This document shows positions 16,811 to 38,959 of a stretch of DNA of 64,000 nucleotides, one piece after another. The stretch spans positions 32,001 through 96,000 of IMG/VR virus record IMGVR_UViG_3300025168_000034. One strand, written 5' to 3'. Under the pieces are notes generated by a model. That model had not been told where the DNA came from. It worked only from the letters and a program-made list of their open reading frames with translations, and made no database searches. The stretch comes from a virus. How positions within the stretch are numbered: position 1 is the stretch's first letter; every line of letters starts with the position of its first letter. Both the position numbers and the translations under genes were made by a program.

Positions 16811-16839
16811 AATATACGGCTTTTATACTTATAAAGCAA
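16811..16839 (-). promoter_or_regulatory. Class-2 promoter TTGCTT-N17-TATATT
   Basis: Matches the family consensus; upstream of groES. Confidence 0.7.
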
Positions 16840-18552: not shown

Positions 18553-20799
18553 TTACACGTGACCTTCTGCGAAATCTGTTGCTATATTTGGTTCTGCAAT
18601 TAATCCAGTCTCAATTGAAACAGTATTCTCCATACAATCCTTTGTAATCTCACAAGCTTTCTCTGCATGCTCTGCTGATGCGTTTACTACAAATTCATCA
18701 TGTATCTGTAGCATTATATAAGCATCGATGTTATGCTTTTGAAACTCTTCATGAATTCTAATGGCAGATCTGTTCATGATTGAAGCTGCAAGAGATTGGA
18801 TCTGGAAGTTCTTAGCATTGTTAAGGCCGTTCTTATATTCCATTCTCAACTGCTGAAGCTCTTTCTCGTTACCAGCCTTGCGTGCATTCTCTTTCATGCC
18901 TTTGAATACCCACGGCTTGATCAAATTGTCTTCAAATTTCTCATAAATGTACTTGACTTTATCAAGATGTCTAATTCTACCAGTCTTGTTTACAATCTTA
19001 CCTACCGTGTTTGCACGAAGGTGGGTATCATTCATCCACTTTGCTAACTCTGGAAAACCATCTAAGTATCCGTTGATCATTTTCTGAGCTTCTTTGATGT
19101 GGATGTTAAGTTGTTTACCAATCTGCCATGCACCAGCTCCATAAGGAATAGCTAGTGCAATCGACTTAGCTCTCTGTCTAAGGTCAGGTCTGAGTTTCTT
19201 GAGATAGTTATCATCTGATTTGATAGCAGACATACCTTCAAGCTTCCATGCTTGTATTGCTACTCTACTATATAGATCTTCACCATTCTTGAATACGTTG
19301 ATTAGTCCTGGATCATTGCTCACACTTGCAAACACTCTTGGCTCCAAACTACTCTGGTCACATATGACTAAACGTCTATCGTCTTCTGACTTAACAAACT
19401 TACGGACAATGTTATTGTACTTCAATACGAGTGGACTAGCCTCACCAGGTTCTAGGATTCTAGGTAACTGTTGGCTGTCGGAGCTGAATCGTCCACTCGT
19501 AGTTCCATGTTGTTTCACATAGAAGTAGTACCTTCCATCCTCAGATCGTTCTGTGAATCGATCAATGTAGGAAGATTTGATCTTGTTAAGTTTGTTGTAA
19601 TCTTTCATCTTAGCAGCCCACTCATAATCCTTAGATATATGGTCAACCAAGCCTTCGTTGAATTGATTATTACCTTTACGTGTTTTGCTTAACGGCTTTA
19701 TTCTGAGATAGTCAAAGCATAATTCACCAAGTTGTTTCTTACTACTGATGTTAATGAGTCCACCTTCTTTCTCTTTTAAGAGATCCAGACTAACTCTCAT
19801 GCTGTCCATAGGATCCAGATGTTCAGTATCACCATCTGCAAGAAACTGATCAACACCATCTTCATTCTTCATCATGCCTCTATTCTTGTAGTCTAAAAGC
19901 TTCTTAGCAAAGTTACCTCTTTTCTTTGGTGGAAAGGATTCGTGAGCTCTTTCTAAAGCCCATCTCTTAGCTTCTGGTAGTTTCATCAAAGCATCTACAA
20001 CTTCTTTCTCAAGTCTCGTAATGTCTTTTGTAATCTGACTATCCATATCATTGATCAAATCCATATCAAGCATAGATCCTTTCTCTTCCATCTGAATAGT
20101 TACTGTACGATATAGAGGCATCACCTCATCTGTAAAGAAGAAGTCCCATAGGTTTTCCTCTTTTAGTAGTGGCAGATAGTGAGTCATTACACGTAATGTA
20201 AGATCGGTATCAGCTGCAGCGTATTCTCCAATGATCTGCATGTCAGCTTTGTATAATTCGTAGTTAGTCTTGGTAGTCTGACCTCCATTGGCTTTTATAG
20301 ATTCTTTCAATTTGATCTGCTCTTCGTTAGCTTCCTTCTCAGCATCTATACCTAACTCGTTCTGAAGCTCTATTGCAATATCCTTCAAACCAAATGGACC
20401 ATCTTCTTTAAGAGTGTGACGTAGTAGCATAGTATCACAATAAAGTGAATCACGCAAATCTATACCATAGCAGTTTAGAGTATAGCGAACATCAAAAGAT
20501 GCATTATGCATTACTAACTTCTTACCGACAAGCAGCTTGATTAGCTTAACAGCAATATCCTCACACCTCTTACCTTCGATAGTAAGATTATCAATAGTTT
20601 GTGTGTCGTTGTTCCAAATCTTAGTTGGAAAATAGTAACCTTCATTGAGGTTAGCAGAAACAGAGAAACCTATGATATCTCCTTGTCGAGGATTAACACT
20701 GGTTGTCTCAGTATCATATGCAATTATGTTTCCTTGTGTGATGTAGTTGGCTAGCTCTACTACACCAGCTGCATCTGTGATTATTTTGTAACTCTTCAT
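18553..20799 (-). CDS. polA: Family A DNA polymerase with 3'-5' exonuclease and no 5'-3' exonuclease domain
   Basis: ExoI DTETT, ExoII HNASFD, ExoIII YAAAD; TTSGRFSS; motif A DQSSLEPR, motif B RQRAKSIALAIPYG, motif C QIHDEF. Confidence 0.95.
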   Translation of the reverse strand: MKSYKIITDAAGVVELANYITQGNIIAYDTETTSVNPRQGDIIGFSVSANLNEGYYFPTKIWNNDTQTIDNLTIEGKRCEDIAVKLIKLLVGKKLVMHNASFDVRYTLNCYGIDLRDSLYCDTMLLRHTLKEDGPFGLKDIAIELQNELGIDAEKEANEEQIKLKESIKANGGQTTKTNYELYKADMQIIGEYAAADTDLTLRVMTHYLPLLKEENLWDFFFTDEVMPLYRTVTIQMEEKGSMLDMDLINDMDSQITKDITRLEKEVVDALMKLPEAKRWALERAHESFPPKKRGNFAKKLLDYKNRGMMKNEDGVDQFLADGDTEHLDPMDSMRVSLDLLKEKEGGLINISSKKQLGELCFDYLRIKPLSKTRKGNNQFNEGLVDHISKDYEWAAKMKDYNKLNKIKSSYIDRFTERSEDGRYYFYVKQHGTTSGRFSSDSQQLPRILEPGEASPLVLKYNNIVRKFVKSEDDRRLVICDQSSLEPRVFASVSNDPGLINVFKNGEDLYSRVAIQAWKLEGMSAIKSDDNYLKKLRPDLRQRAKSIALAIPYGAGAWQIGKQLNIHIKEAQKMINGYLDGFPELAKWMNDTHLRANTVGKIVNKTGRIRHLDKVKYIYEKFEDNLIKPWVFKGMKENARKAGNEKELQQLRMEYKNGLNNAKNFQIQSLAASIMNRSAIRIHEEFQKHNIDAYIMLQIHDEFVVNASAEHAEKACEITKDCMENTVSIETGLIAEPNIATDFAEGHV

Positions 20800-23230: not shown

Positions 23231-25201
23231 TTATTTTGTAGTATATGTAATAACATAAGTTGATTTTCCAGATGTAACAGTTAGTGTATTGTTGGTAAAC
23301 TGTGCTGTGGTTGATAGAGTTTCTAGACCATTAGTTAATCTAAATGGTCCATTTGGAGATGTTTCTGCATCAGTTGCAGTAAGTGTAATGGTTGTTTTTG
23401 AAGCGTATTGTAAAGTTCTTGTTCCCAACTGAACCTTGTTAGTCATTGTTACAGTTTCTCCACCATTTTCCGTTAGTTGATATGTACCACTACTAGCTAT
23501 GTGATGCGTATCAAAACTATTAATTTGAAATCTTCGAGCCGCATCTTTACTAGATATATTAGTCCATTGAGCTTCATTAGTAAAATCAGCAATATGTGCT
23601 GTTAATGTTTTCGAACCTCCCTGAGGAGTTATTGAATATTCATATCTACTTGTTGATGAATTATATGCTATTTCATAATTAGTACTTCCAAGCTTGCTAC
23701 TCAGTGTAGCAGATGTAGATGTTTGATTTGCTGCTATTGAAGCTGTAAATGGTTGTATAGGTGCAGTTGCCCATTGTTTTCCATCATACTCTTGTAACGT
23801 ATAACTACTTGCAGTTGGTAAATATTTTGCTTCGTCTTTTAATTCAGATGATAATACTTGGAATCCAGGATTAGCCAATGTTATTTCATACACTTTACCG
23901 GCTGATGCCGTAACTTGTGTTGCTATGATAGTTGGTGCTGCTTTTGGAAAAGTAGCTGCTACTGTTGGATTAAATGGTCCAGACTCATTGTTTAAGAATT
24001 GTCCTCTTCTTATTTCAGTTCCTACTACAAACATTTGACCTGGGGCTTCTTTAAATTCAAGCGTAACAACATCTTCACCTTTTTCTTGCATTGTGTAAGT
24101 CATTCCACCTAATTGAAAAAATTCACGAGAAGGTTTTTTAGATGTATTAGCATCTGTTTCATTTGCTTTGCCATCTTCTATTTGAGCTAAACTACTTTGT
24201 TGGGTTTCTATTAATTCAAATACAGGAACAAATCCAGCTGATGCACCTTGTGCTAATCTATCTGCTTGTACAGCATAATCTTCTTTTACGCCTCTGTTAA
24301 CTGCTTGGATTTGGGTCGTTAAGTAGTTAGCATTATATAATTCAGATCTTGATAACTCACCTAATTGTTCACGTACACTGTTTAGTGATGATTTGATAGT
24401 TCGTCTAGCCGAGGTATCAAGACTACCAGTTGTTGTCCAAGCATTACCATCAGGAAGTTTAACTTTATCGAAAAGAGTTTCAGGATCAATTTCGGTTTTA
24501 GCTCCTCTTGTACTTTGTATTTGTCGAGCTATAGATTTATATCCTTCTACCTTTGCATTATTAGTTGTAAAGTTTGTAGAGTCTGCTCCTTTTACTGCAC
24601 TACCTACCATCTCGGTAACACTCTCTAAATAGGTTGCTATTGATTGAGCTGCTACTGCTGCTTGACTGTCAGCTAGTATGGATTCTGCTACGTAGTCTTT
24701 GTTGAGCATTACATCTTTATCTGCTACATCTAACTCTACTCCAAACAATGTGCTTGAGCTAACAAATAAAAGATCAATAGCTGTGTCAACAGTTAGGTTT
24801 GTATCTTCTTCTTTGAGGTGAAATGCTAATGTGGTTAATGGAGAAACTGTTGAGTATTCTGCAAAGCCTTTTAATTCACCAGTGAATGCTACTCCGGTAA
24901 TTGCATCGGTTCCTCCAATCACTGTTATTTCTTCAGTTGGAATTCCAGGTAAGGTGAATCGACCAGCGTTGTCTGTTACAGCATTTCCGGTTCCTGGAGA
25001 AGATACGGTTGCTCCTGATAAGGGTCCATCAGATGCATTACCACTAAATCCAACTCCTCCTGCAGCTCCGCCATACATGGCTTGGATTGCTTGAAGGTCA
25101 AGTAATTGTTTAGAGTTTTCTAAAAGGAATCTAGCCTTTTGTTCTCTAAGAGTTAGTTTTGTATTTTCTGGATTGCTTATAAATTGCTGCCATGTAATCA
25201 T
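23231..25201 (-). CDS. Putative virion surface/appendage protein (S/T-rich, multi-domain)
   Basis: Late motif upstream (25219-25226); Gly linker followed by DGPLSGATV...TDNAGRF (carboxypeptidase-regulatory-like beta domain) and beta-rich C-terminal domains. Confidence 0.5.
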   Translation of the reverse strand: MITWQQFISNPENTKLTLREQKARFLLENSKQLLDLQAIQAMYGGAAGGVGFSGNASDGPLSGATVSSPGTGNAVTDNAGRFTLPGIPTEEITVIGGTDAITGVAFTGELKGFAEYSTVSPLTTLAFHLKEEDTNLTVDTAIDLLFVSSSTLFGVELDVADKDVMLNKDYVAESILADSQAAVAAQSIATYLESVTEMVGSAVKGADSTNFTTNNAKVEGYKSIARQIQSTRGAKTEIDPETLFDKVKLPDGNAWTTTGSLDTSARRTIKSSLNSVREQLGELSRSELYNANYLTTQIQAVNRGVKEDYAVQADRLAQGASAGFVPVFELIETQQSSLAQIEDGKANETDANTSKKPSREFFQLGGMTYTMQEKGEDVVTLEFKEAPGQMFVVGTEIRRGQFLNNESGPFNPTVAATFPKAAPTIIATQVTASAGKVYEITLANPGFQVLSSELKDEAKYLPTASSYTLQEYDGKQWATAPIQPFTASIAANQTSTSATLSSKLGSTNYEIAYNSSTSRYEYSITPQGGSKTLTAHIADFTNEAQWTNISSKDAARRFQINSFDTHHIASSGTYQLTENGGETVTMTNKVQLGTRTLQYASKTTITLTATDAETSPNGPFRLTNGLETLSTTAQFTNNTLTVTSGKSTYVITYTTK

Positions 25202-25321: not shown

Positions 25322-25354
25322 TAGAGCCTTATATTAGGAAAACATAAGGCTCTA
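25322..25354 (-). terminator. Stem-loop closing the deazaguanine operon
   Basis: Perfect 11-bp inverted repeat TAGAGCCTTAT-N11-ATAAGGCTCTA just after the stop at 25362. Confidence 0.6.
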
Positions 25355-25361
25355 GTTTGTG

Positions 25362-26174
25362 TTAAAGATCTGCTCGCAGCAGTTCTGGGATTCTGCATTG
25401 TAATCCTAAGAAAGCTATATTCTTTTCGATTAAGCTAAAGTCAATATCAGCAGGATTACTCAGATCAAACTCCTCCAAAAAGTTGTGAGGTGTTGGAGTT
25501 CTTGTCTCGTGATCCATACTAAAGTCTTGACCATGTACAGCTGCTAATACTGGATACACTGAATCTGTACTTCTCATCATCGCATGATCATAGTAAGCAA
25601 ACTCAGTTGGATCTCCTTGGCCTAGACAATGAATAGGCTTCTTGAGTAAATCTTTCTTTTTGAGATAATCGTAACACGCATGACGTGCCTCTTTGATTCC
25701 TTGATCATCTTCAAAATCATCAAGCCATGCATTAGGTACTGCTATTTTTGATAAGCCAATTACCTTAACCCAATTCTTATCTATACCCCACTGATAAGCT
25801 TCAATCCAATCCTCTTTAGTTTGTCCTTGAGGACAGAAGAAGATATCGATATTGTCAGATAATCCTTCTGCATCCATTCTTGCTTTGAAGTTTGTTGCAT
25901 TAGCAATTGTAGCTTGTTTGTCAAACAACACATCAGGTGCAATCACTTCATTTGGCATAAGCACTTTGCAGATACCAATCAACACATCTTCAGTAACTAA
26001 TGCTCTTTCAGCTGCGCTATTGTCAAGTGTTATAAATTTACCTTGCTCTTTTTGTTCGAGAATAAACTTTCTGTATTCTGGAAACTGTACCCATAAGTGT
26101 GCAAGAGCAAATATTCTATCTCCGAGCTTCATTGGCTCGAGGTTGCTTACAGGTGATATTACGTAATAATCCAT
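25362..26174 (-). CDS. dpdA: TGT-like TIM-barrel 7-deazaguanine transglycosylase (DpdA-like, probably the divergent DpdA3 type)
   Basis: TGT-fold motifs LDNSAAE, APDVL, PQG, IHCLG, RSTDS; starts 1 nt after the folE stop. Confidence 0.7.
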   Translation of the reverse strand: MDYYVISPVSNLEPMKLGDRIFALAHLWVQFPEYRKFILEQKEQGKFITLDNSAAERALVTEDVLIGICKVLMPNEVIAPDVLFDKQATIANATNFKARMDAEGLSDNIDIFFCPQGQTKEDWIEAYQWGIDKNWVKVIGLSKIAVPNAWLDDFEDDQGIKEARHACYDYLKKKDLLKKPIHCLGQGDPTEFAYYDHAMMRSTDSVYPVLAAVHGQDFSMDHETRTPTPHNFLEEFDLSNPADIDFSLIEKNIAFLGLQCRIPELLRADL

Positions 26175-26175
26175 A

Positions 26176-26817
26176 TTATGTTCTACTTTGATCTATTAAT
26201 TGAAAAAATTCTTGTCTTGTTCCTATCTCATTTGTCCAGAAGTATCCAGACATTTGTGATGTCTTCATTACTGAGTCTTGTTTGATACCTCTACACTTCA
26301 CACAGTTGTGTTGTGATTCAACTACCACAGCTACACCTCTGTTTCCTACACATAACTTATCAACGTGATCGTGAATTTGCTTTGTTAAGCTTTCTTGTAT
26401 GTTTGGTCTACGAGAATAAAAATCTACAATACGATTAAGCTTACTCAAACCAACTACTAGATCCTCCTTCTCTTTACCTGGTATGTAAGCTACATGAGCT
26501 ACTCCTGAGAAAGTTAAGTTATGGTGTGCACACATACTCATTACTGGAATACGTGTTTGGCATATTAATCCGGTGTAGCCTTCGTCGTTAGGGAATGCAG
26601 TTACTTCAGGTGCTGGATTGATGGATCCTGCAATAAGATCATTAACCCATGCTTTCGCTACACGGTGAGGTGTACGATCGCTATGAGGATCAGCTTTCCA
26701 ATCAAAACCTAACGCTTCTAAAAATCCACCATAATACTCAGCAGCCTTTTTTATCATCTGCTCCTTCTCTTCGTTTGTACGAGGAAGATTCCCGTTCGCT
26801 TTTTTAATTAATTTCAT
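26176..26817 (-). CDS. folE: GTP cyclohydrolase I
   Basis: TPHRVAK, SMCAHH, GLSKLNRIV..YSRRP.IQE.LT, HNCVKCRG. Confidence 0.95.
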   Translation of the reverse strand: MKLIKKANGNLPRTNEEKEQMIKKAAEYYGGFLEALGFDWKADPHSDRTPHRVAKAWVNDLIAGSINPAPEVTAFPNDEGYTGLICQTRIPVMSMCAHHNLTFSGVAHVAYIPGKEKEDLVVGLSKLNRIVDFYSRRPNIQESLTKQIHDHVDKLCVGNRGVAVVVESQHNCVKCRGIKQDSVMKTSQMSGYFWTNEIGTRQEFFQLIDQSRT

Positions 26818-26820
26818 ATA

Positions 26821-27297
26821 TTAATTGTTGTTTATAATTTCTAATCGTTCTTCAAATATACTAAAAATCTTTTGACATTCCAACTCTATTGGTTTATTAT
26901 CTGCAACCTCAAAAGATTCAGTATCTTTGATATCGTCACGACGTTCATAACGCACTTTTCGTATGTGTTCGGATGTGTTTAACCATATTAGATGAGAGTC
27001 GGGATACCACTCAAGAATTTTATCTACGATTGTAGATTGTCTTATCCCATCTACAATAATAGGTCTTCTCTTAATGATACCTTTCTCCACACAAGTTGTT
27101 ATAGCATCTAACACTCCAACAACCTCTTCCGCAATACGCTCATCTAAATGTAGTGAGTTTTGTAACTTTGTTCGATCCTCACTTTTTATCAAATCCTTAA
27201 CAATGTTAGATACCGATATTCTGTAAGATGTTGATGCTTGAAACGAACTCTTCCCACTACATATACGTCCAAATAATAATATAACTTCTGCTTTCAT
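26821..27297 (-). CDS. P-loop nucleoside monophosphate kinase-like protein
   Basis: VILLFGRICSGKS (Walker A), IIVDGIRQ, lid-like RKVRYERR, terminal IINN. Start reassigned to 27297 (ATGA overlap with the upstream stop). Confidence 0.75.
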   Translation of the reverse strand: MKAEVILLFGRICSGKSSFQASTSYRISVSNIVKDLIKSEDRTKLQNSLHLDERIAEEVVGVLDAITTCVEKGIIKRRPIIVDGIRQSTIVDKILEWYPDSHLIWLNTSEHIRKVRYERRDDIKDTESFEVADNKPIELECQKIFSIFEERLEIINNN

Positions 27298-27635
27298 ATC
27301 TCTACAATTCCAAAAAATTCTCCATCCTCTGACACAGTGCATCGACAAAGACCAAAATAGTTTAACAAATCCTCCGCTATCATCTCACAGCTCATTCCTC
27401 CAAAGTTGCAACATCCATATGCTCCATCGTACCAAGTCTTAGCAATATATTTTTTAAGCTTATGTTTAAAATCTATAAACTCAATGTCTCTATCACCATG
27501 TGACACTTCTGCTCTACAACTTATCTGGAATGTGTGTCTGTGTAAATGTTTTAAATACTCAACATTTGGTAGTGGACAATCTTTCCACTGATGCAATCCT
27601 TCTACATCAACTCTTACCTCTATATATTTTTTCAT
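27294..27635 (-). CDS. dpdL: QueD-paralog T-fold protein, putative 7-carboxy-7-deazaguanine decarboxylase (DpdL-like)
   Basis: EGLHQW, LKHLHRHTF (LxxxHRHxF), DRDIEF, SCEMIAE, VSEDGE; a canonical queD is present separately. Confidence 0.7.
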   Translation of the reverse strand: MKKYIEVRVDVEGLHQWKDCPLPNVEYLKHLHRHTFQISCRAEVSHGDRDIEFIDFKHKLKKYIAKTWYDGAYGCCNFGGMSCEMIAEDLLNYFGLCRCTVSEDGEFFGIVEI

Positions 27636-27641
27636 AATTCT

Positions 27642-27670
27642 AATATACGGCTTTTATTGCAAAGATACAA
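27642..27670 (-). promoter_or_regulatory. Class-2 promoter TTGTAT-N17-TATATT heading the dpdL-kinase-folE-dpdA operon
   Basis: 6 nt upstream of the ATG at 27635. Confidence 0.72.
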
Positions 27671-27880: not shown

Positions 27881-28363
27881 CTACTTTTTGTCTTTGTCTT
27901 TTTGCCATTGACCATCGTACAACTCTGCTTCTGCATTCTCCATCATAATGATCTGAGCTACTCTAGCACCTTTTTCTAAAACAATAGTTTCAGTAGCTAT
28001 AAGCATACCACCCATCTCATCTACCTCAAATCCTGGATCGTAAACTCCTGATGTGATAACACCTCCTGATCTTAGAACAGAGGACCTATGCCTAATAAAA
28101 GCTGTGTGTTTGTCATCCAACTTACATCCTTGTTCAAAGGTGAGTGAATAGGTACCTGGTTCTAGTTGATATAGAAACTTACCATCATCATTAATGAATG
28201 GTGTAACTTCATCGTAATCAAATACAGTGGTTTTATCTTTCATAACCATACCACCATTTACTTTATTTATTGACTTTAAGGTTAAGTCATAACCAACTTG
28301 CGCTTTCTTTCCTTTGTCTTTTGTATCAAGCAAGGAAGCGACTCCATCTGCATTTAGTAACAT
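27881..28363 (-). CDS. Trimeric dUTPase/dCTP-deaminase-fold protein
   Basis: GYDLTL, RSS, VYDPGF, GARVAQ, YDGQWQ; the TLE glutamate of dCTP deaminases is not evident. Confidence 0.8.
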   Translation of the reverse strand: MLLNADGVASLLDTKDKGKKAQVGYDLTLKSINKVNGGMVMKDKTTVFDYDEVTPFINDDGKFLYQLEPGTYSLTFEQGCKLDDKHTAFIRHRSSVLRSGGVITSGVYDPGFEVDEMGGMLIATETIVLEKGARVAQIIMMENAEAELYDGQWQKDKDKK

Positions 28364-28553: not shown

Positions 28554-28582
28554 AATATACGGTTTATTATTCTATTTTCCTA
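28554..28582 (-). promoter_or_regulatory. Class-2 promoter TAGGAA-N17-TATATT
   Basis: Matches the family consensus. Confidence 0.65.
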
Positions 28583-28706
28583 ATTCTTTTATCTTTTCTT
28601 TAAGCTCATCAATCATTGCTTGAACCTCATCAGGCTCCATTGTAATAGCACAGCATGTGCCAACGTGTTCTGATATCTCTTCTAGTAACTCTAAAGCTTC
28701 TTCCAT
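28572..28706 (-). CDS. Small hypothetical protein (44 aa)
   Basis: MEEALELLEEISEHVGTCCAITMEPDEVQAMIDELKEKIKELGK; TGATG overlap with the queE stop. Confidence 0.55.
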   Translation of the reverse strand: MEEALELLEEISEHVGTCCAITMEPDEVQAMIDELKEKIKELGK

Positions 28707-29563
28707 CACACTCCTCGTTCTGTATCGAATGCTATGATGTGATCTCTACCAGTCATATTGTATCCCTCTCTTTCGCACATTCTGAATACTTTGGGATACA
28801 TTTCGATTAGTGTTACTCTCGTATCTCCGGCTGGCATCATATATGTCTTGTCTTTTGGAATATTCATCTCAACTCTGAAAGCTTCGATCTCCTCTAAGTT
28901 TTTATCTGTACCGTCCCATACTGGTTTGAAGTGATAGTCTGTGTGATAGTCTAAAGTCTTACGCATTGCGTCGTAATTCATTCTCAACTTGTTGTGTTGT
29001 TTTATCATACGCTCATCCGTTTCTTTACCAGATGGCGTCTTAGCGCCCAAAACGGGAACACTATTACTAAACTTAGGGCTAAGACTAATAAGCCCAATAG
29101 GATGATCAGTTGGTAAAAAGTGACTACCTTCAGTTTCAATAGTGATAAGAATACCTCTTTCATTTGCAAAGTGTGTTAATTCGTTTACTAGAGCTGGATG
29201 CATTGTTGGTGATCCTCCAGTTAACATCATTTCTTTTACGTGAGGATTGTCGTCATAAATTTTAATAATGTCGTTGAAGTTGAATGTACCTTTCTCTGGA
29301 TGAATACTTGTGTACCAAGAATCACACCATCCACCCTCACCAAAGTAACATCTGTGAGTACATCCAGTTGTTCTTACTGCAATAGTAGGTCTTCCGAATC
29401 TACTACCTTCAGACTGAACACATCTGTAAACTTCCACTATAGGTAGTACTTTATCGTAATTCTCAATACGTTTTAGTTGCTTTTCTTTTGTTGCTTGATA
29501 AGGTTTGTTCCTATCAAAATCGTAGTAATGCTTTGAGTGTTTTCTTGTGTCTTGCATGCTCAT
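28706..29563 (-). CDS. queE: 7-carboxy-7-deazaguanine synthase (radical SAM)
   Basis: EVY..VQSEG...GRPTIAVRT.GCTHRC...WCDSWY, LTGGSP, IETEG, SLSPK, R.HI..F...RGV. Confidence 0.9.
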   Translation of the reverse strand: MSMQDTRKHSKHYYDFDRNKPYQATKEKQLKRIENYDKVLPIVEVYRCVQSEGSRFGRPTIAVRTTGCTHRCYFGEGGWCDSWYTSIHPEKGTFNFNDIIKIYDDNPHVKEMMLTGGSPTMHPALVNELTHFANERGILITIETEGSHFLPTDHPIGLISLSPKFSNSVPVLGAKTPSGKETDERMIKQHNKLRMNYDAMRKTLDYHTDYHFKPVWDGTDKNLEEIEAFRVEMNIPKDKTYMMPAGDTRVTLIEMYPKVFRMCEREGYNMTGRDHIIAFDTERGV

Positions 29564-29878: not shown

Positions 29879-30346
29879 CTATCCTTCATAGATTGCTGTA
29901 TTTTTCTTGTTCTCAAAAAATTCCACTCTTGCGATACTCACTCTGCCTTCTGTCTCTTCTTGTACAAACGCGTTTAGCTTTTTGTATATAAACTCAGCAA
30001 ATCTCTCAGCGCCTACTGGACCATCCATTTCTCTTAATTGGATGATACCCTCATCATCTGCTTCTTGAAAATGAGTTAAGTATGGATCATCTTTTGCAAT
30101 TACAACTGTATGATCAAACATATAATCCATCCACTCTTTAGGAGACATTCCATCAATCTTAGTATTGGATCTTTTCATTCCTCCAAAGTCCCATACCCAA
30201 TTACGATGATCAAGATCACCCTCGAAGGTTACTTTAAACTCTATTGCATATCCATGTAAGAATCTGCAGTGTGTTGTTGTTGCTTGGTATTGACGAAATA
30301 CTGTACTGAATCCGTCAAAGATTTTTGTTGATTGAAATTTAGGCAT
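29879..30346 (-). CDS. queD: 6-carboxy-5,6,7,8-tetrahydropterin synthase
   Basis: CRFLHGY, WVWDFG, FDH, GAERFAEFIY, E..KNTA.Y. Confidence 0.9.
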   Translation of the reverse strand: MPKFQSTKIFDGFSTVFRQYQATTTHCRFLHGYAIEFKVTFEGDLDHRNWVWDFGGMKRSNTKIDGMSPKEWMDYMFDHTVVIAKDDPYLTHFQEADDEGIIQLREMDGPVGAERFAEFIYKKLNAFVQEETEGRVSIARVEFFENKKNTAIYEG

Positions 30347-30983: not shown

Positions 30984-31012
30984 AATATACGGAATATTTA
31001 TTAGTAATCCAA
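30984..31012 (-). promoter_or_regulatory. Class-2 promoter TTGGAT-N17-TATATT
   Basis: Heads the queD-queE transcript; 5 nt upstream of the ATG. Confidence 0.7.
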
Positions 31013-38930: not shown

Positions 38931-38959
38931 AATATACGGTTTATTAATGTAACTTACAA
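38931..38959 (-). promoter_or_regulatory. Class-2 promoter TTGTAA-N17-TATATT
   Basis: 7 nt upstream of the helicase ATG. Confidence 0.7.

Follow-up and report, generated by a model that had tools for sequence, protein, structure and literature searches.

Conserved linkage of a nucleotide-kinase-fold protein to the DpdA3 transglycosylase suggests pre-replicative synthesis of modified guanine in phages

The deazaguanine module described here lies in a 64,000-nucleotide stretch of DNA, hereafter the window, which corresponds to bases 32001-96000 of a 165,609-bp IMG/VR virus record (IMGVR_UViG_3300025168_000034) from an uncultured marine phage. At its core is a unit of four genes encoding a DpdL-like protein, a 158-aa P-loop protein with a nucleotide-kinase fold, FolE and a transglycosylase of the DpdA3 type. 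Comparison across phage genomes identifies the 158-aa kinase as an integral and conserved partner of DpdA3, and in our view the kinase very probably functions within the DpdA3 pathway. The linkage suggests, short of proof, that the modified guanine is made as a free nucleotide before replication and not by exchange in finished DNA. A complete route of this kind, where DpdA3 would act on free deoxynucleotides or nucleosides and, with the kinase and a dGTP-removing phosphohydrolase, give rise to fully guanine-substituted genomes, is put forward as a real but tentative possibility. The four genes of the unit are as follows.

27294..27635, minus strand: DpdL-like QueD paralogue, a proposed 7-carboxy-7-deazaguanine (CDG) decarboxylase, 113 aa (homology and signature)
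26821..27297, minus strand: P-loop nucleotide-kinase-fold protein, AAA_18-like, 158 aa from its ATG (Pfam AAA_18, AlphaFold2, Foldseek and synteny)
26176..26817, minus strand: GTP cyclohydrolase I (FolE), 213 aa (Pfam PF01227, 4.6e-44, 150 bits)
25362..26174, minus strand: DpdA3-type TGT-fold transglycosylase, 270 aa (homology to phiST gp042, phrog_20335 and fold)

The linkage of the kinase to DpdA3 is both specific and wide. An IMG/VR scan with the kinase alignment recovered 37 loci in which kinase identity falls as low as 34%, and on 34 of the 37 viral contigs with a homologue the kinase gene is located between dpdL and folE or dpdA3. In one of the three exceptions (L041/L107) the same contig carries a DpdA3-like gene at a distance of 25 kb. 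Scanning with the DpdA3 alignment yielded 79 loci, of which 55 are unique and have 3 kb or more of sequence on each side; a kinase-fold gene is found within 3 kb of DpdA3 in 42 of these 55 and within 7 kb in 44. Seven annotated deazaguanine phage loci without DpdA3 (Seurat, VpKK5, Vid5, phi3:1, TA17A, Roos and ACP17) served as the control, and a kinase-fold gene is present in none of the seven. An eighth candidate, Bacteroides phage BS162P1, carries FolE only and was left out, and the control is limited to the seven annotated loci because an IMG/VR scan with the phi3:1 DpdA, aimed at a larger set, found no relatives. An earlier note on this DNA had proposed the co-occurrence and synteny of this kinase with DpdA3 and DpdL-like genes as a check, and had named a lack of linkage to dpd genes among the outcomes that would undo its proposal; the kinase proves to be tied to both DpdA3 and DpdL.

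These counts bear directly on the possibility that the protein is an ordinary phage (d)NMP kinase that raises dNTP supply and neighbours DpdA3 only through a shared replication and nucleotide-metabolism module. Such kinases are common in large phages, PolA, RNR, a helicase and RecA adjoin the module in this phage, and its genome contains no other NMP kinase, being devoid of PF21448 and thymidylate kinase matches. However, the position between dpdL and folE or dpdA3 is kept despite divergence of the kinase to 34% identity, all but three of the 37 family loci fall within deazaguanine modules, and the occurrence at 42 of 55 DpdA3 loci compares with 0 of 7 other deazaguanine clusters. The kinase has also been fused to three different pathway proteins, as described below. 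Chance proximity of a general kinase is thus a very unlikely explanation.

The family of the kinase changes from clade to clade while its place beside DpdA3 is retained. An AAA_18-type kinase is used by the window clade and by the phiST/MA9V-3 clade, and in Chryseobacterium phage MA9V-3 the gene order is DpdL-containing protein, kinase homologue and DpdA3. In two further loci (L094 and L095) the gene between QueE and DpdL-DpdA3 is a T4-type dNMP kinase with a significant Pfam match (PF21448, 55 bits in L095). In Campylobacter phage CPt10 an HD+AAA_33 fusion and an AAA_28 kinase lie on opposite sides of DpdA3, and phage immuto_2-6A has the order NTP pyrophosphohydrolase, DpdA3, DpdN and AAA_28 kinase; the AAA_28 kinases of these two phages (CPt10_0551 and immuto26A_68) are homologous at 2e-20. 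A P-loop gene with weak likeness to deoxynucleoside kinases (dNK) abuts DpdA3 in Bacillus phage BSP7. Complete guanine replacement has been reported for three phage groups, phiST, the Campylobacter CP220 group and immuto_2-6A, and in each of them DpdA3 has both a kinase and an NTP phosphohydrolase next to it. The fold of the phosphohydrolase likewise varies by clade: most have a Dcd/dUTPase-like enzyme, the phiST clade and immuto have MazG, and the Campylobacter phages have HD.

Gene fusions tie the kinase to its neighbours. A 408-aa protein, P0358, joins DpdA3 to a P-loop domain that matches the kinase HMM at 3.7e-15, and its contig has the order dUTPase-QueC-AAA_28-fusion-FolE-QueE-QueD. DpdL is fused to an AAA_18 kinase in L072 and L073, and the kinase to FolE in L016 and L017, in the latter case through a single stop-to-Gln change between in-frame genes. 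A search for fused forms of DpdA3 of 540-2000 aa found none.

The control loci also show a contrast in ATPase partners. A ParB-like gene is paired with DpdA or DpdL in three of the seven (Mycobacterium phage TA17A, L120; Cellulophaga phage phi3:1, L119; Faecalibacterium phage Roos, L043), which resembles the pairing of bacterial DpdA with DpdB, whereas no ParB-like open reading frame (ORF) was found in roughly 110 DpdA3 or kinase loci or in the phage genome of the window. Among the systems examined the split is clean, with ParB in three non-DpdA3 loci and kinase plus pyrophosphatase in DpdA3 loci. In another control, Acidovorax phage ACP17, a glycosyltransferase-like gene (ASD50404, L042:5972-7000) directly precedes DpdL, and neither DpdA3 nor the kinase was recognised in this locus.

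Such a split could also be expected if the P-loop protein were an ATP-using helper of DpdA3 on DNA and hence analogous in function to the DpdB of bacteria. There, DpdA depends on DpdB and ATP, and the DpdB ATPase is required for preQ0 insertion into DNA (PMC10164549). In DpdA3 loci the P-loop gene takes the place of ParB-like genes, which are missing, a DpdA3 and P-loop fusion exists, and expression of DpdA3 in E. coli, with or without DpdL, produced no modification (PMC10516641). Nevertheless, the protein has a minimal NMP-kinase fold without a DNA-binding domain and keeps both the lid arginines and those that bind a phosphorylated acceptor. Its replacement elsewhere by bona fide kinase families (PF21448, AAA_28/dNK-like) would be unexpected for a DNA-handling ATPase, and it is also fused to DpdL and FolE, enzymes of small-molecule steps. 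On balance a DpdB-like role appears improbable.

A more substantial alternative retains post-replicative exchange on DNA and assigns the kinase and pyrophosphatase, with a phosphoribosyltransferase in some phages, to precursor management. Guanine or GMP would be recycled through GDP to GTP for FolE and further 7-deazaguanine synthesis, the GMP being derived from guanine released by DpdA3 or from host nucleic-acid breakdown. This is consistent with the published post-replicative model and with the large GTP flux that full guanine replacement requires. The kinase directly precedes folE in the window clade and is fused in frame to FolE in L016 and L017, it has a weak partial PHROG match to guanylate kinase (phrog_1815, E 0.0036), and immuto_2-6A has an annotated phosphoribosyltransferase (immuto26A_60, L126:4768-5163) between QueE and FolE. 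The latter gene bears on guanine salvage or on nucleotide formation from free base. In most other clades, however, the kinase abuts DpdA3 and not FolE. Examples are phiST/MA9V-3, CPt10, BSP7 and L113, in which FolE is encoded several genes further off or is missing from the locus. In P0358 it is fused to DpdA3 itself. The FolE fusion amounts to one stop-to-Gln change between genes already in frame, no Pfam guanylate kinase match (PF00625) is obtained at E up to 1, and partial-modification phages consume GTP too, yet have no kinase. Precursor supply is considered rather unlikely, and less probable than the nucleotide-pool route outlined below.

The earlier description of the 158-aa product as NMP-kinase-like is borne out by its predicted structure and conserved residues. 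The AlphaFold2 model (pLDDT 90.7) has as its top Foldseek matches adenylate and UMP/CMP kinases (E 2.5e-7 and below) together with thymidylate kinases and the Sulfolobus AdkA-like protein 3LW7. The sequence matches Pfam AAA_18 at 2.9e-6 with 28.2 bits, narrowly missing the gathering cut-off of 29.4 bits, and many close homologues are precomputed as PF13238. Its Walker A motif reads GRICSGKS, with the lysine kept in the family, and Arg42, Arg86 within a VDGIRQ motif and Arg113/116/120 are conserved in 25 of 25 family members and align to the AMP-bound 3LW7. Arg86 is the counterpart of the adenylate-kinase GFPR arginine, accompanied by a second NMP-site arginine and three lid arginines. The fold matches and the conserved Walker, NMP-site and lid residues together identify a nucleotide-kinase-fold protein rather than an AAA+ or ParB-type ATPase, and Pfam finds no ParB_N domain in it. 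It has no match to PF21448, the T4 gp1-type dNMP kinase, and an NCBIfam search returned no model for either this kinase or DpdA3. Dephospho-CoA kinase and cytidylate kinase, names that some sources give to homologues, were rejected because neither family profile matched.

The DpdA3 of the window is 38% identical to phiST gp042 (CGPG_00065), the founding DpdA3, over 87% of the protein (tblastn, E 1e-39) and 44% identical to its MA9V-3 counterpart, and matches phrog_20335 at 2.8e-48. Its AlphaFold2 model (pLDDT 94.4) is a TGT-like (beta/alpha)8 barrel, for which the top 50 Foldseek matches are all Zymomonas mobilis TGT (E about 1e-8, TM about 0.6); a PDB sequence search with the DpdA3 profile found nothing at E up to 10, so that the TGT link comes from the fold search alone. 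The candidate catalytic residues Asp51, Asp81, Gln116 and Asp204 are invariant in 32 members that diverge to about 25% identity and occur in the same order as TGT Asp102, Asp156, Gln203 and Asp280. For the first three residues a weak hhalign comparison with a DpdA2 (E 0.01) places LDNSA opposite GDSGA and PDV opposite LDV, and Asp204 is the putative nucleophile by motif order only, with the C-terminus following about 65 residues later. DpdA3 proteins are acidic, with a median net charge of -12.5 (n=32), and lysine or arginine is conserved at only three positions.

Several DpdA3 proteins carry a C-terminal DUF3310 domain (P0317, P0318, P0325, P0266 and EVB91_073 of Rhizobium phage RHph_I1_18, L127:4998-6266), making DUF3310 a second recurrent DpdA3 fusion partner besides the kinase. 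LAGLIDADG homing-endonuclease domains are joined to the DpdA3 ORFs P0244, P0249 and P0333, and mobile endonucleases appear to target dpdA3. An HNH-like ORF extends into dpdL in L048.

The candidate phosphohydrolase of the window is encoded upstream of dpdL.

27881..28363, minus strand: dUTPase/Dcd-family NTP pyrophosphatase-like protein, 160 aa (Pfam DCD, 4.4e-12)

Its Pfam DCD score is 46.8 bits against a cut-off of 27 bits, and the NCBIfam archaeal-type dUTPase model NF002598 matches at 1.4e-24 with 86.5 bits, under the cut-off of 130 bits. When aligned to 4XJC, the protein has a glycine at the position of the dCTP-deaminase catalytic glutamate, and this substitution together with the family profile matches points to a probable hydrolase-type member. 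The 165-kb genome has one dUTPase-family gene and one AAA_18 gene.

These components can be assembled into a molecular model in which guanine is replaced in the nucleotide pool. FolE, QueD, QueE and DpdL would convert GTP to the free base 7-deazaguanine, while the dUTPase-family pyrophosphatase would turn dGTP into dGMP, thereby both removing the competitor and supplying the acceptor. DpdA3 would then exchange guanine for 7-deazaguanine on the free deoxynucleotide, or perhaps on the nucleoside in clades with AAA_28 or dNK-like kinases. The kinase would lift 7-deaza-dGMP to the diphosphate, from which host NDP kinase would make dDGTP, and the phage PolA would copy the genome using dDGTP. In this scheme we infer the substrate of every enzyme as well as the timing of the exchange before replication.

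The model draws on analogy with established systems. In the T4 hmC pathway the dCTPase gp56, dCMP hydroxymethylase gp42 and dNMP kinase gp1 act together, and the Z-genome pathway employs MazZ, DatZ and PurZ. The shared logic, to destroy the canonical dNTP, modify the monophosphate, re-phosphorylate it by a dedicated kinase and polymerise, would be that of the proposed route, and a kinase of the T4 gp1 family is also present in one DpdA3 clade. Around the transglycosylase, the conserved kinase and phosphohydrolase, with their fusions and changes of family, match this pattern of known pre-replicative pathways. The absence of both from partial-modification, ParB-linked DpdA systems, the acidity and few conserved basic residues of DpdA3, and an ADG nucleoside detected in the cytoplasm of CP220-infected cells (PMC10516641) fit the same picture. 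In contrast to the T4 and Z systems, the modifier here would be a base-exchanging TGT-fold transglycosylase rather than a base-decorating or de novo enzyme.

Several considerations weigh against exchange in the nucleotide pool. Every characterised member of the TGT superfamily acts on tRNA or DNA, and none is known to use a free nucleotide or nucleoside. In eleven of the 55 DpdA3 loci, all in distant clades and including that of Rhizobium phage RHph_I1_18, no kinase is found up to 7 kb from DpdA3. The sequence of the kinase does not reveal its substrate, and the best-scoring model for the pyrophosphatase is an archaeal-type dUTPase, which may be all that it is. An ATP-using helper would be just as likely to be found fused to DpdA3. 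Small size does not set DpdA3 apart from DNA-acting DpdAs either, and the earlier argument from a bare barrel of only 270 aa is weak because the ParB-linked DpdA of Cellulophaga phage phi3:1, with a net charge of -6, is shorter still at 240 aa.

The closest characterised system is that of phiST, whose cluster comprises FolE, QueD, QueE, the MazG-like gp039, DpdL (gp040), an 'ATPase' (gp041, CGPG_00066) and DpdA3 (gp042) (Cui, Hutinet et al., NAR 2023, PMC10516641). The window shares this gene set, which lacks QueC, and keeps DpdL, kinase and DpdA3 in the order found in phiST, with identities to phiST of 38% for DpdA3, 36% for DpdL and 28-32% for the kinase. It differs from phiST in that folE lies between the kinase and dpdA3, a Dcd/dUTPase-family gene takes the place of MazG, and the polymerase is PolA instead of Pol III alpha. 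The set of QueD, QueE, FolE, DpdL and DpdA3 without QueC is of the phiST type. The phiST genome is reported to be fully substituted with 2'-deoxy-7-deazaguanosine (dDG), and complete guanine replacement is reported in DpdA3 phages (PMC10516641). By its gene content the phage of the window is predicted to carry dDG in place of dG.

Campylobacter phage CPt10 and immuto_2-6A resemble the window in having an NTP phosphohydrolase and a small kinase as neighbours of DpdA3, although the kinase is of the AAA_28 type and their DpdA3 proteins are only about 22-26% identical to that of the window. Base synthesis in the Campylobacter phages reportedly stops at CDG, with a proposed ADG synthase in use (PMC10516641), and immuto_2-6A, an fdPreQ1 phage, has QueF and DpdN rather than DpdL. 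Bacterial DpdA/DpdB and phage DpdA1 and DpdA2, which act post-replicatively and give partial modification, share with DpdA3 the TGT-fold barrel and the order of candidate catalytic residues. Unlike them, DpdA3 is acidic, lacks a ParB/DpdB partner, a large Ins8 insertion and a Zn subdomain, has kinase and pyrophosphatase companions, and is associated with complete rather than partial replacement.

The claim of the earlier note that this is an undescribed architecture is weakened by the published phiST genome, where the DpdL-ATPase-DpdA3 order is already present (gp040-042) with its meaning dismissed. CGPG_00066 was stated in 2023 to have no homologues in other deazaguanine phages and was set aside, and the modifications were all described as post-replicative (PMC10516641). 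The homologues described above show that the published statement on CGPG_00066 does not hold. The novelty of a polymerase-level mechanism is reduced as well, since a passage of a 2019 paper floats in general terms the use of modified dGTP by the polymerase in Campylobacter phages (PMC6884629). Relative to the literature searched, what is new is the systematic kinase-DpdA3 linkage and its mechanistic implication, the module itself being a further member of the phiST-type dDG group.

The virus record is estimated to be 98% complete. The window has about 36% G+C and carries nearly all its genes on the minus strand, along which the module reads, 5' to 3', QueD, QueE, dUTPase-family gene, small ORF, DpdL, kinase, FolE and DpdA3. 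The tight coupling of the four-gene unit described previously holds when coordinates and gaps are re-read from the sequence, with a 4-nt ATGA overlap between dpdL and the kinase gene, a 3-nt gap (TAT) between the kinase gene and folE, and a 1-nt gap between folE and dpdA3. QueC, ParB, T4-type dNMP kinase (PF21448), thymidylate kinase and ThyX were not found in the whole phage genome, and a nucleotide BLAST of the module against phages gave a single match, 293 nt of folE. The remaining features are as follows.

28706..29563, minus strand: QueE-like radical SAM enzyme (CDG synthase), 285 aa (Pfam Radical_SAM 1.3e-5; NCBIfam QueE 1.6e-13; synteny)
29879..30346, minus strand: QueD-like CPH4 synthase, 155 aa (Pfam PTPS 4.7e-14; signature CxxxHGY)
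18553..20799, minus strand: family A DNA polymerase with 3'-5' exonuclease (Pfam DNA_pol_A 9e-60, exo1 5e-14)
27642..27670, minus strand: promoter-like motif TTGTAT-17-TATATT with core CCGTATATT, 6 nt before the dpdL ATG
28554..28562, minus strand: second CCGTATATT core, ahead of a 52-aa ORF and the dUTPase-family gene (motif count in the window)
25322..25354, minus strand: terminator-like hairpin closing the four-gene unit (-23 kcal/mol, z = -4.7)

The base-synthesis genes conform to their assigned families. DpdL is 36% identical to phiST gp040 (E 8e-12) and 49% to the MA9V-3 protein, matches phrog_17812 at 2e-20, and carries LKHLHRHTF, which corresponds to the published DpdL signature LxxxHRHxF (CxxxHGH in QueD) found in 93 of 95 DpdL ORFs of related loci. 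In MA9V-3 the DpdL-containing protein (XQU63047, 293 aa, L002:6647-7528) has DpdL as its C-terminal third, and the N-terminal ~180 residues have no Pfam match. FolE scores about 1e-45 against the NCBIfam FolE models, under the equivalog cut-offs. A FolE2-type GTP cyclohydrolase (PF02649, 4.8e-69) replaces FolE in L095 (L095:7744-8685), between DpdA3 and the dUTPase-family gene. The QueE-like gene is syntenic with QueE of related loci. The QueD of DpdA3 modules has CxxxHGY rather than the canonical CxxxHGH in 52 of 58 ORFs, the second zinc-ligand histidine being a tyrosine. PolA lies ~4.5 kb past DpdA3 in the same direction, an order shared by most related loci, and a 656-aa ORF at 23231-25201, located between DpdA3 and the region of PolA, has no Pfam or PHROG match.

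The single promoter placed by the earlier note at 27642-27670 stands as a recurrent promoter-like motif and was not called by a sigma-70 scan, being too weak by sigma-70 rules. Five copies of the core CCGTATATT are present in the window where 0.2 would be expected (16811-16819, 27642-27650, 28554-28562, 30984-30992 and 38931-38939, all minus), always 6-30 nt ahead of a start codon, with the copy at 30984 heading the queD-queE stretch and that at 28554 the dUTPase-family gene. As all copies are intergenic and on the coding strand, the motif is considered a recurrent phage promoter-like element, and with the dpdL ATG 6 nt past it the leader would be very short or missing altogether. The core resembles a phage-specific promoter element, whose transcripts may have very short leaders or lack them. 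The closing hairpin noted earlier is strong, with 14 pairs counting the end pairs (25354-25322) followed by TTTATAT, and none of 200 shuffles folds as well.

Two features of DpdA3 phages lack an explanation, the route to 100% guanine replacement and the inactivity of DpdA3 expressed alone. The conserved kinase and NTP phosphohydrolase offer a testable answer to both and name the genes that were absent from failed reconstitutions. Even if the nucleotide-level route is wrong, the kinase is still an unrecognised component of DpdA3 systems. If the route is correct, it would define a new substrate class for the TGT superfamily and give enzymatic access to 7-deaza-dGTP analogues, which are useful reagents. 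It would also join hmC/hmU, Z and dI as a fourth kind of base replacement carried out before replication.

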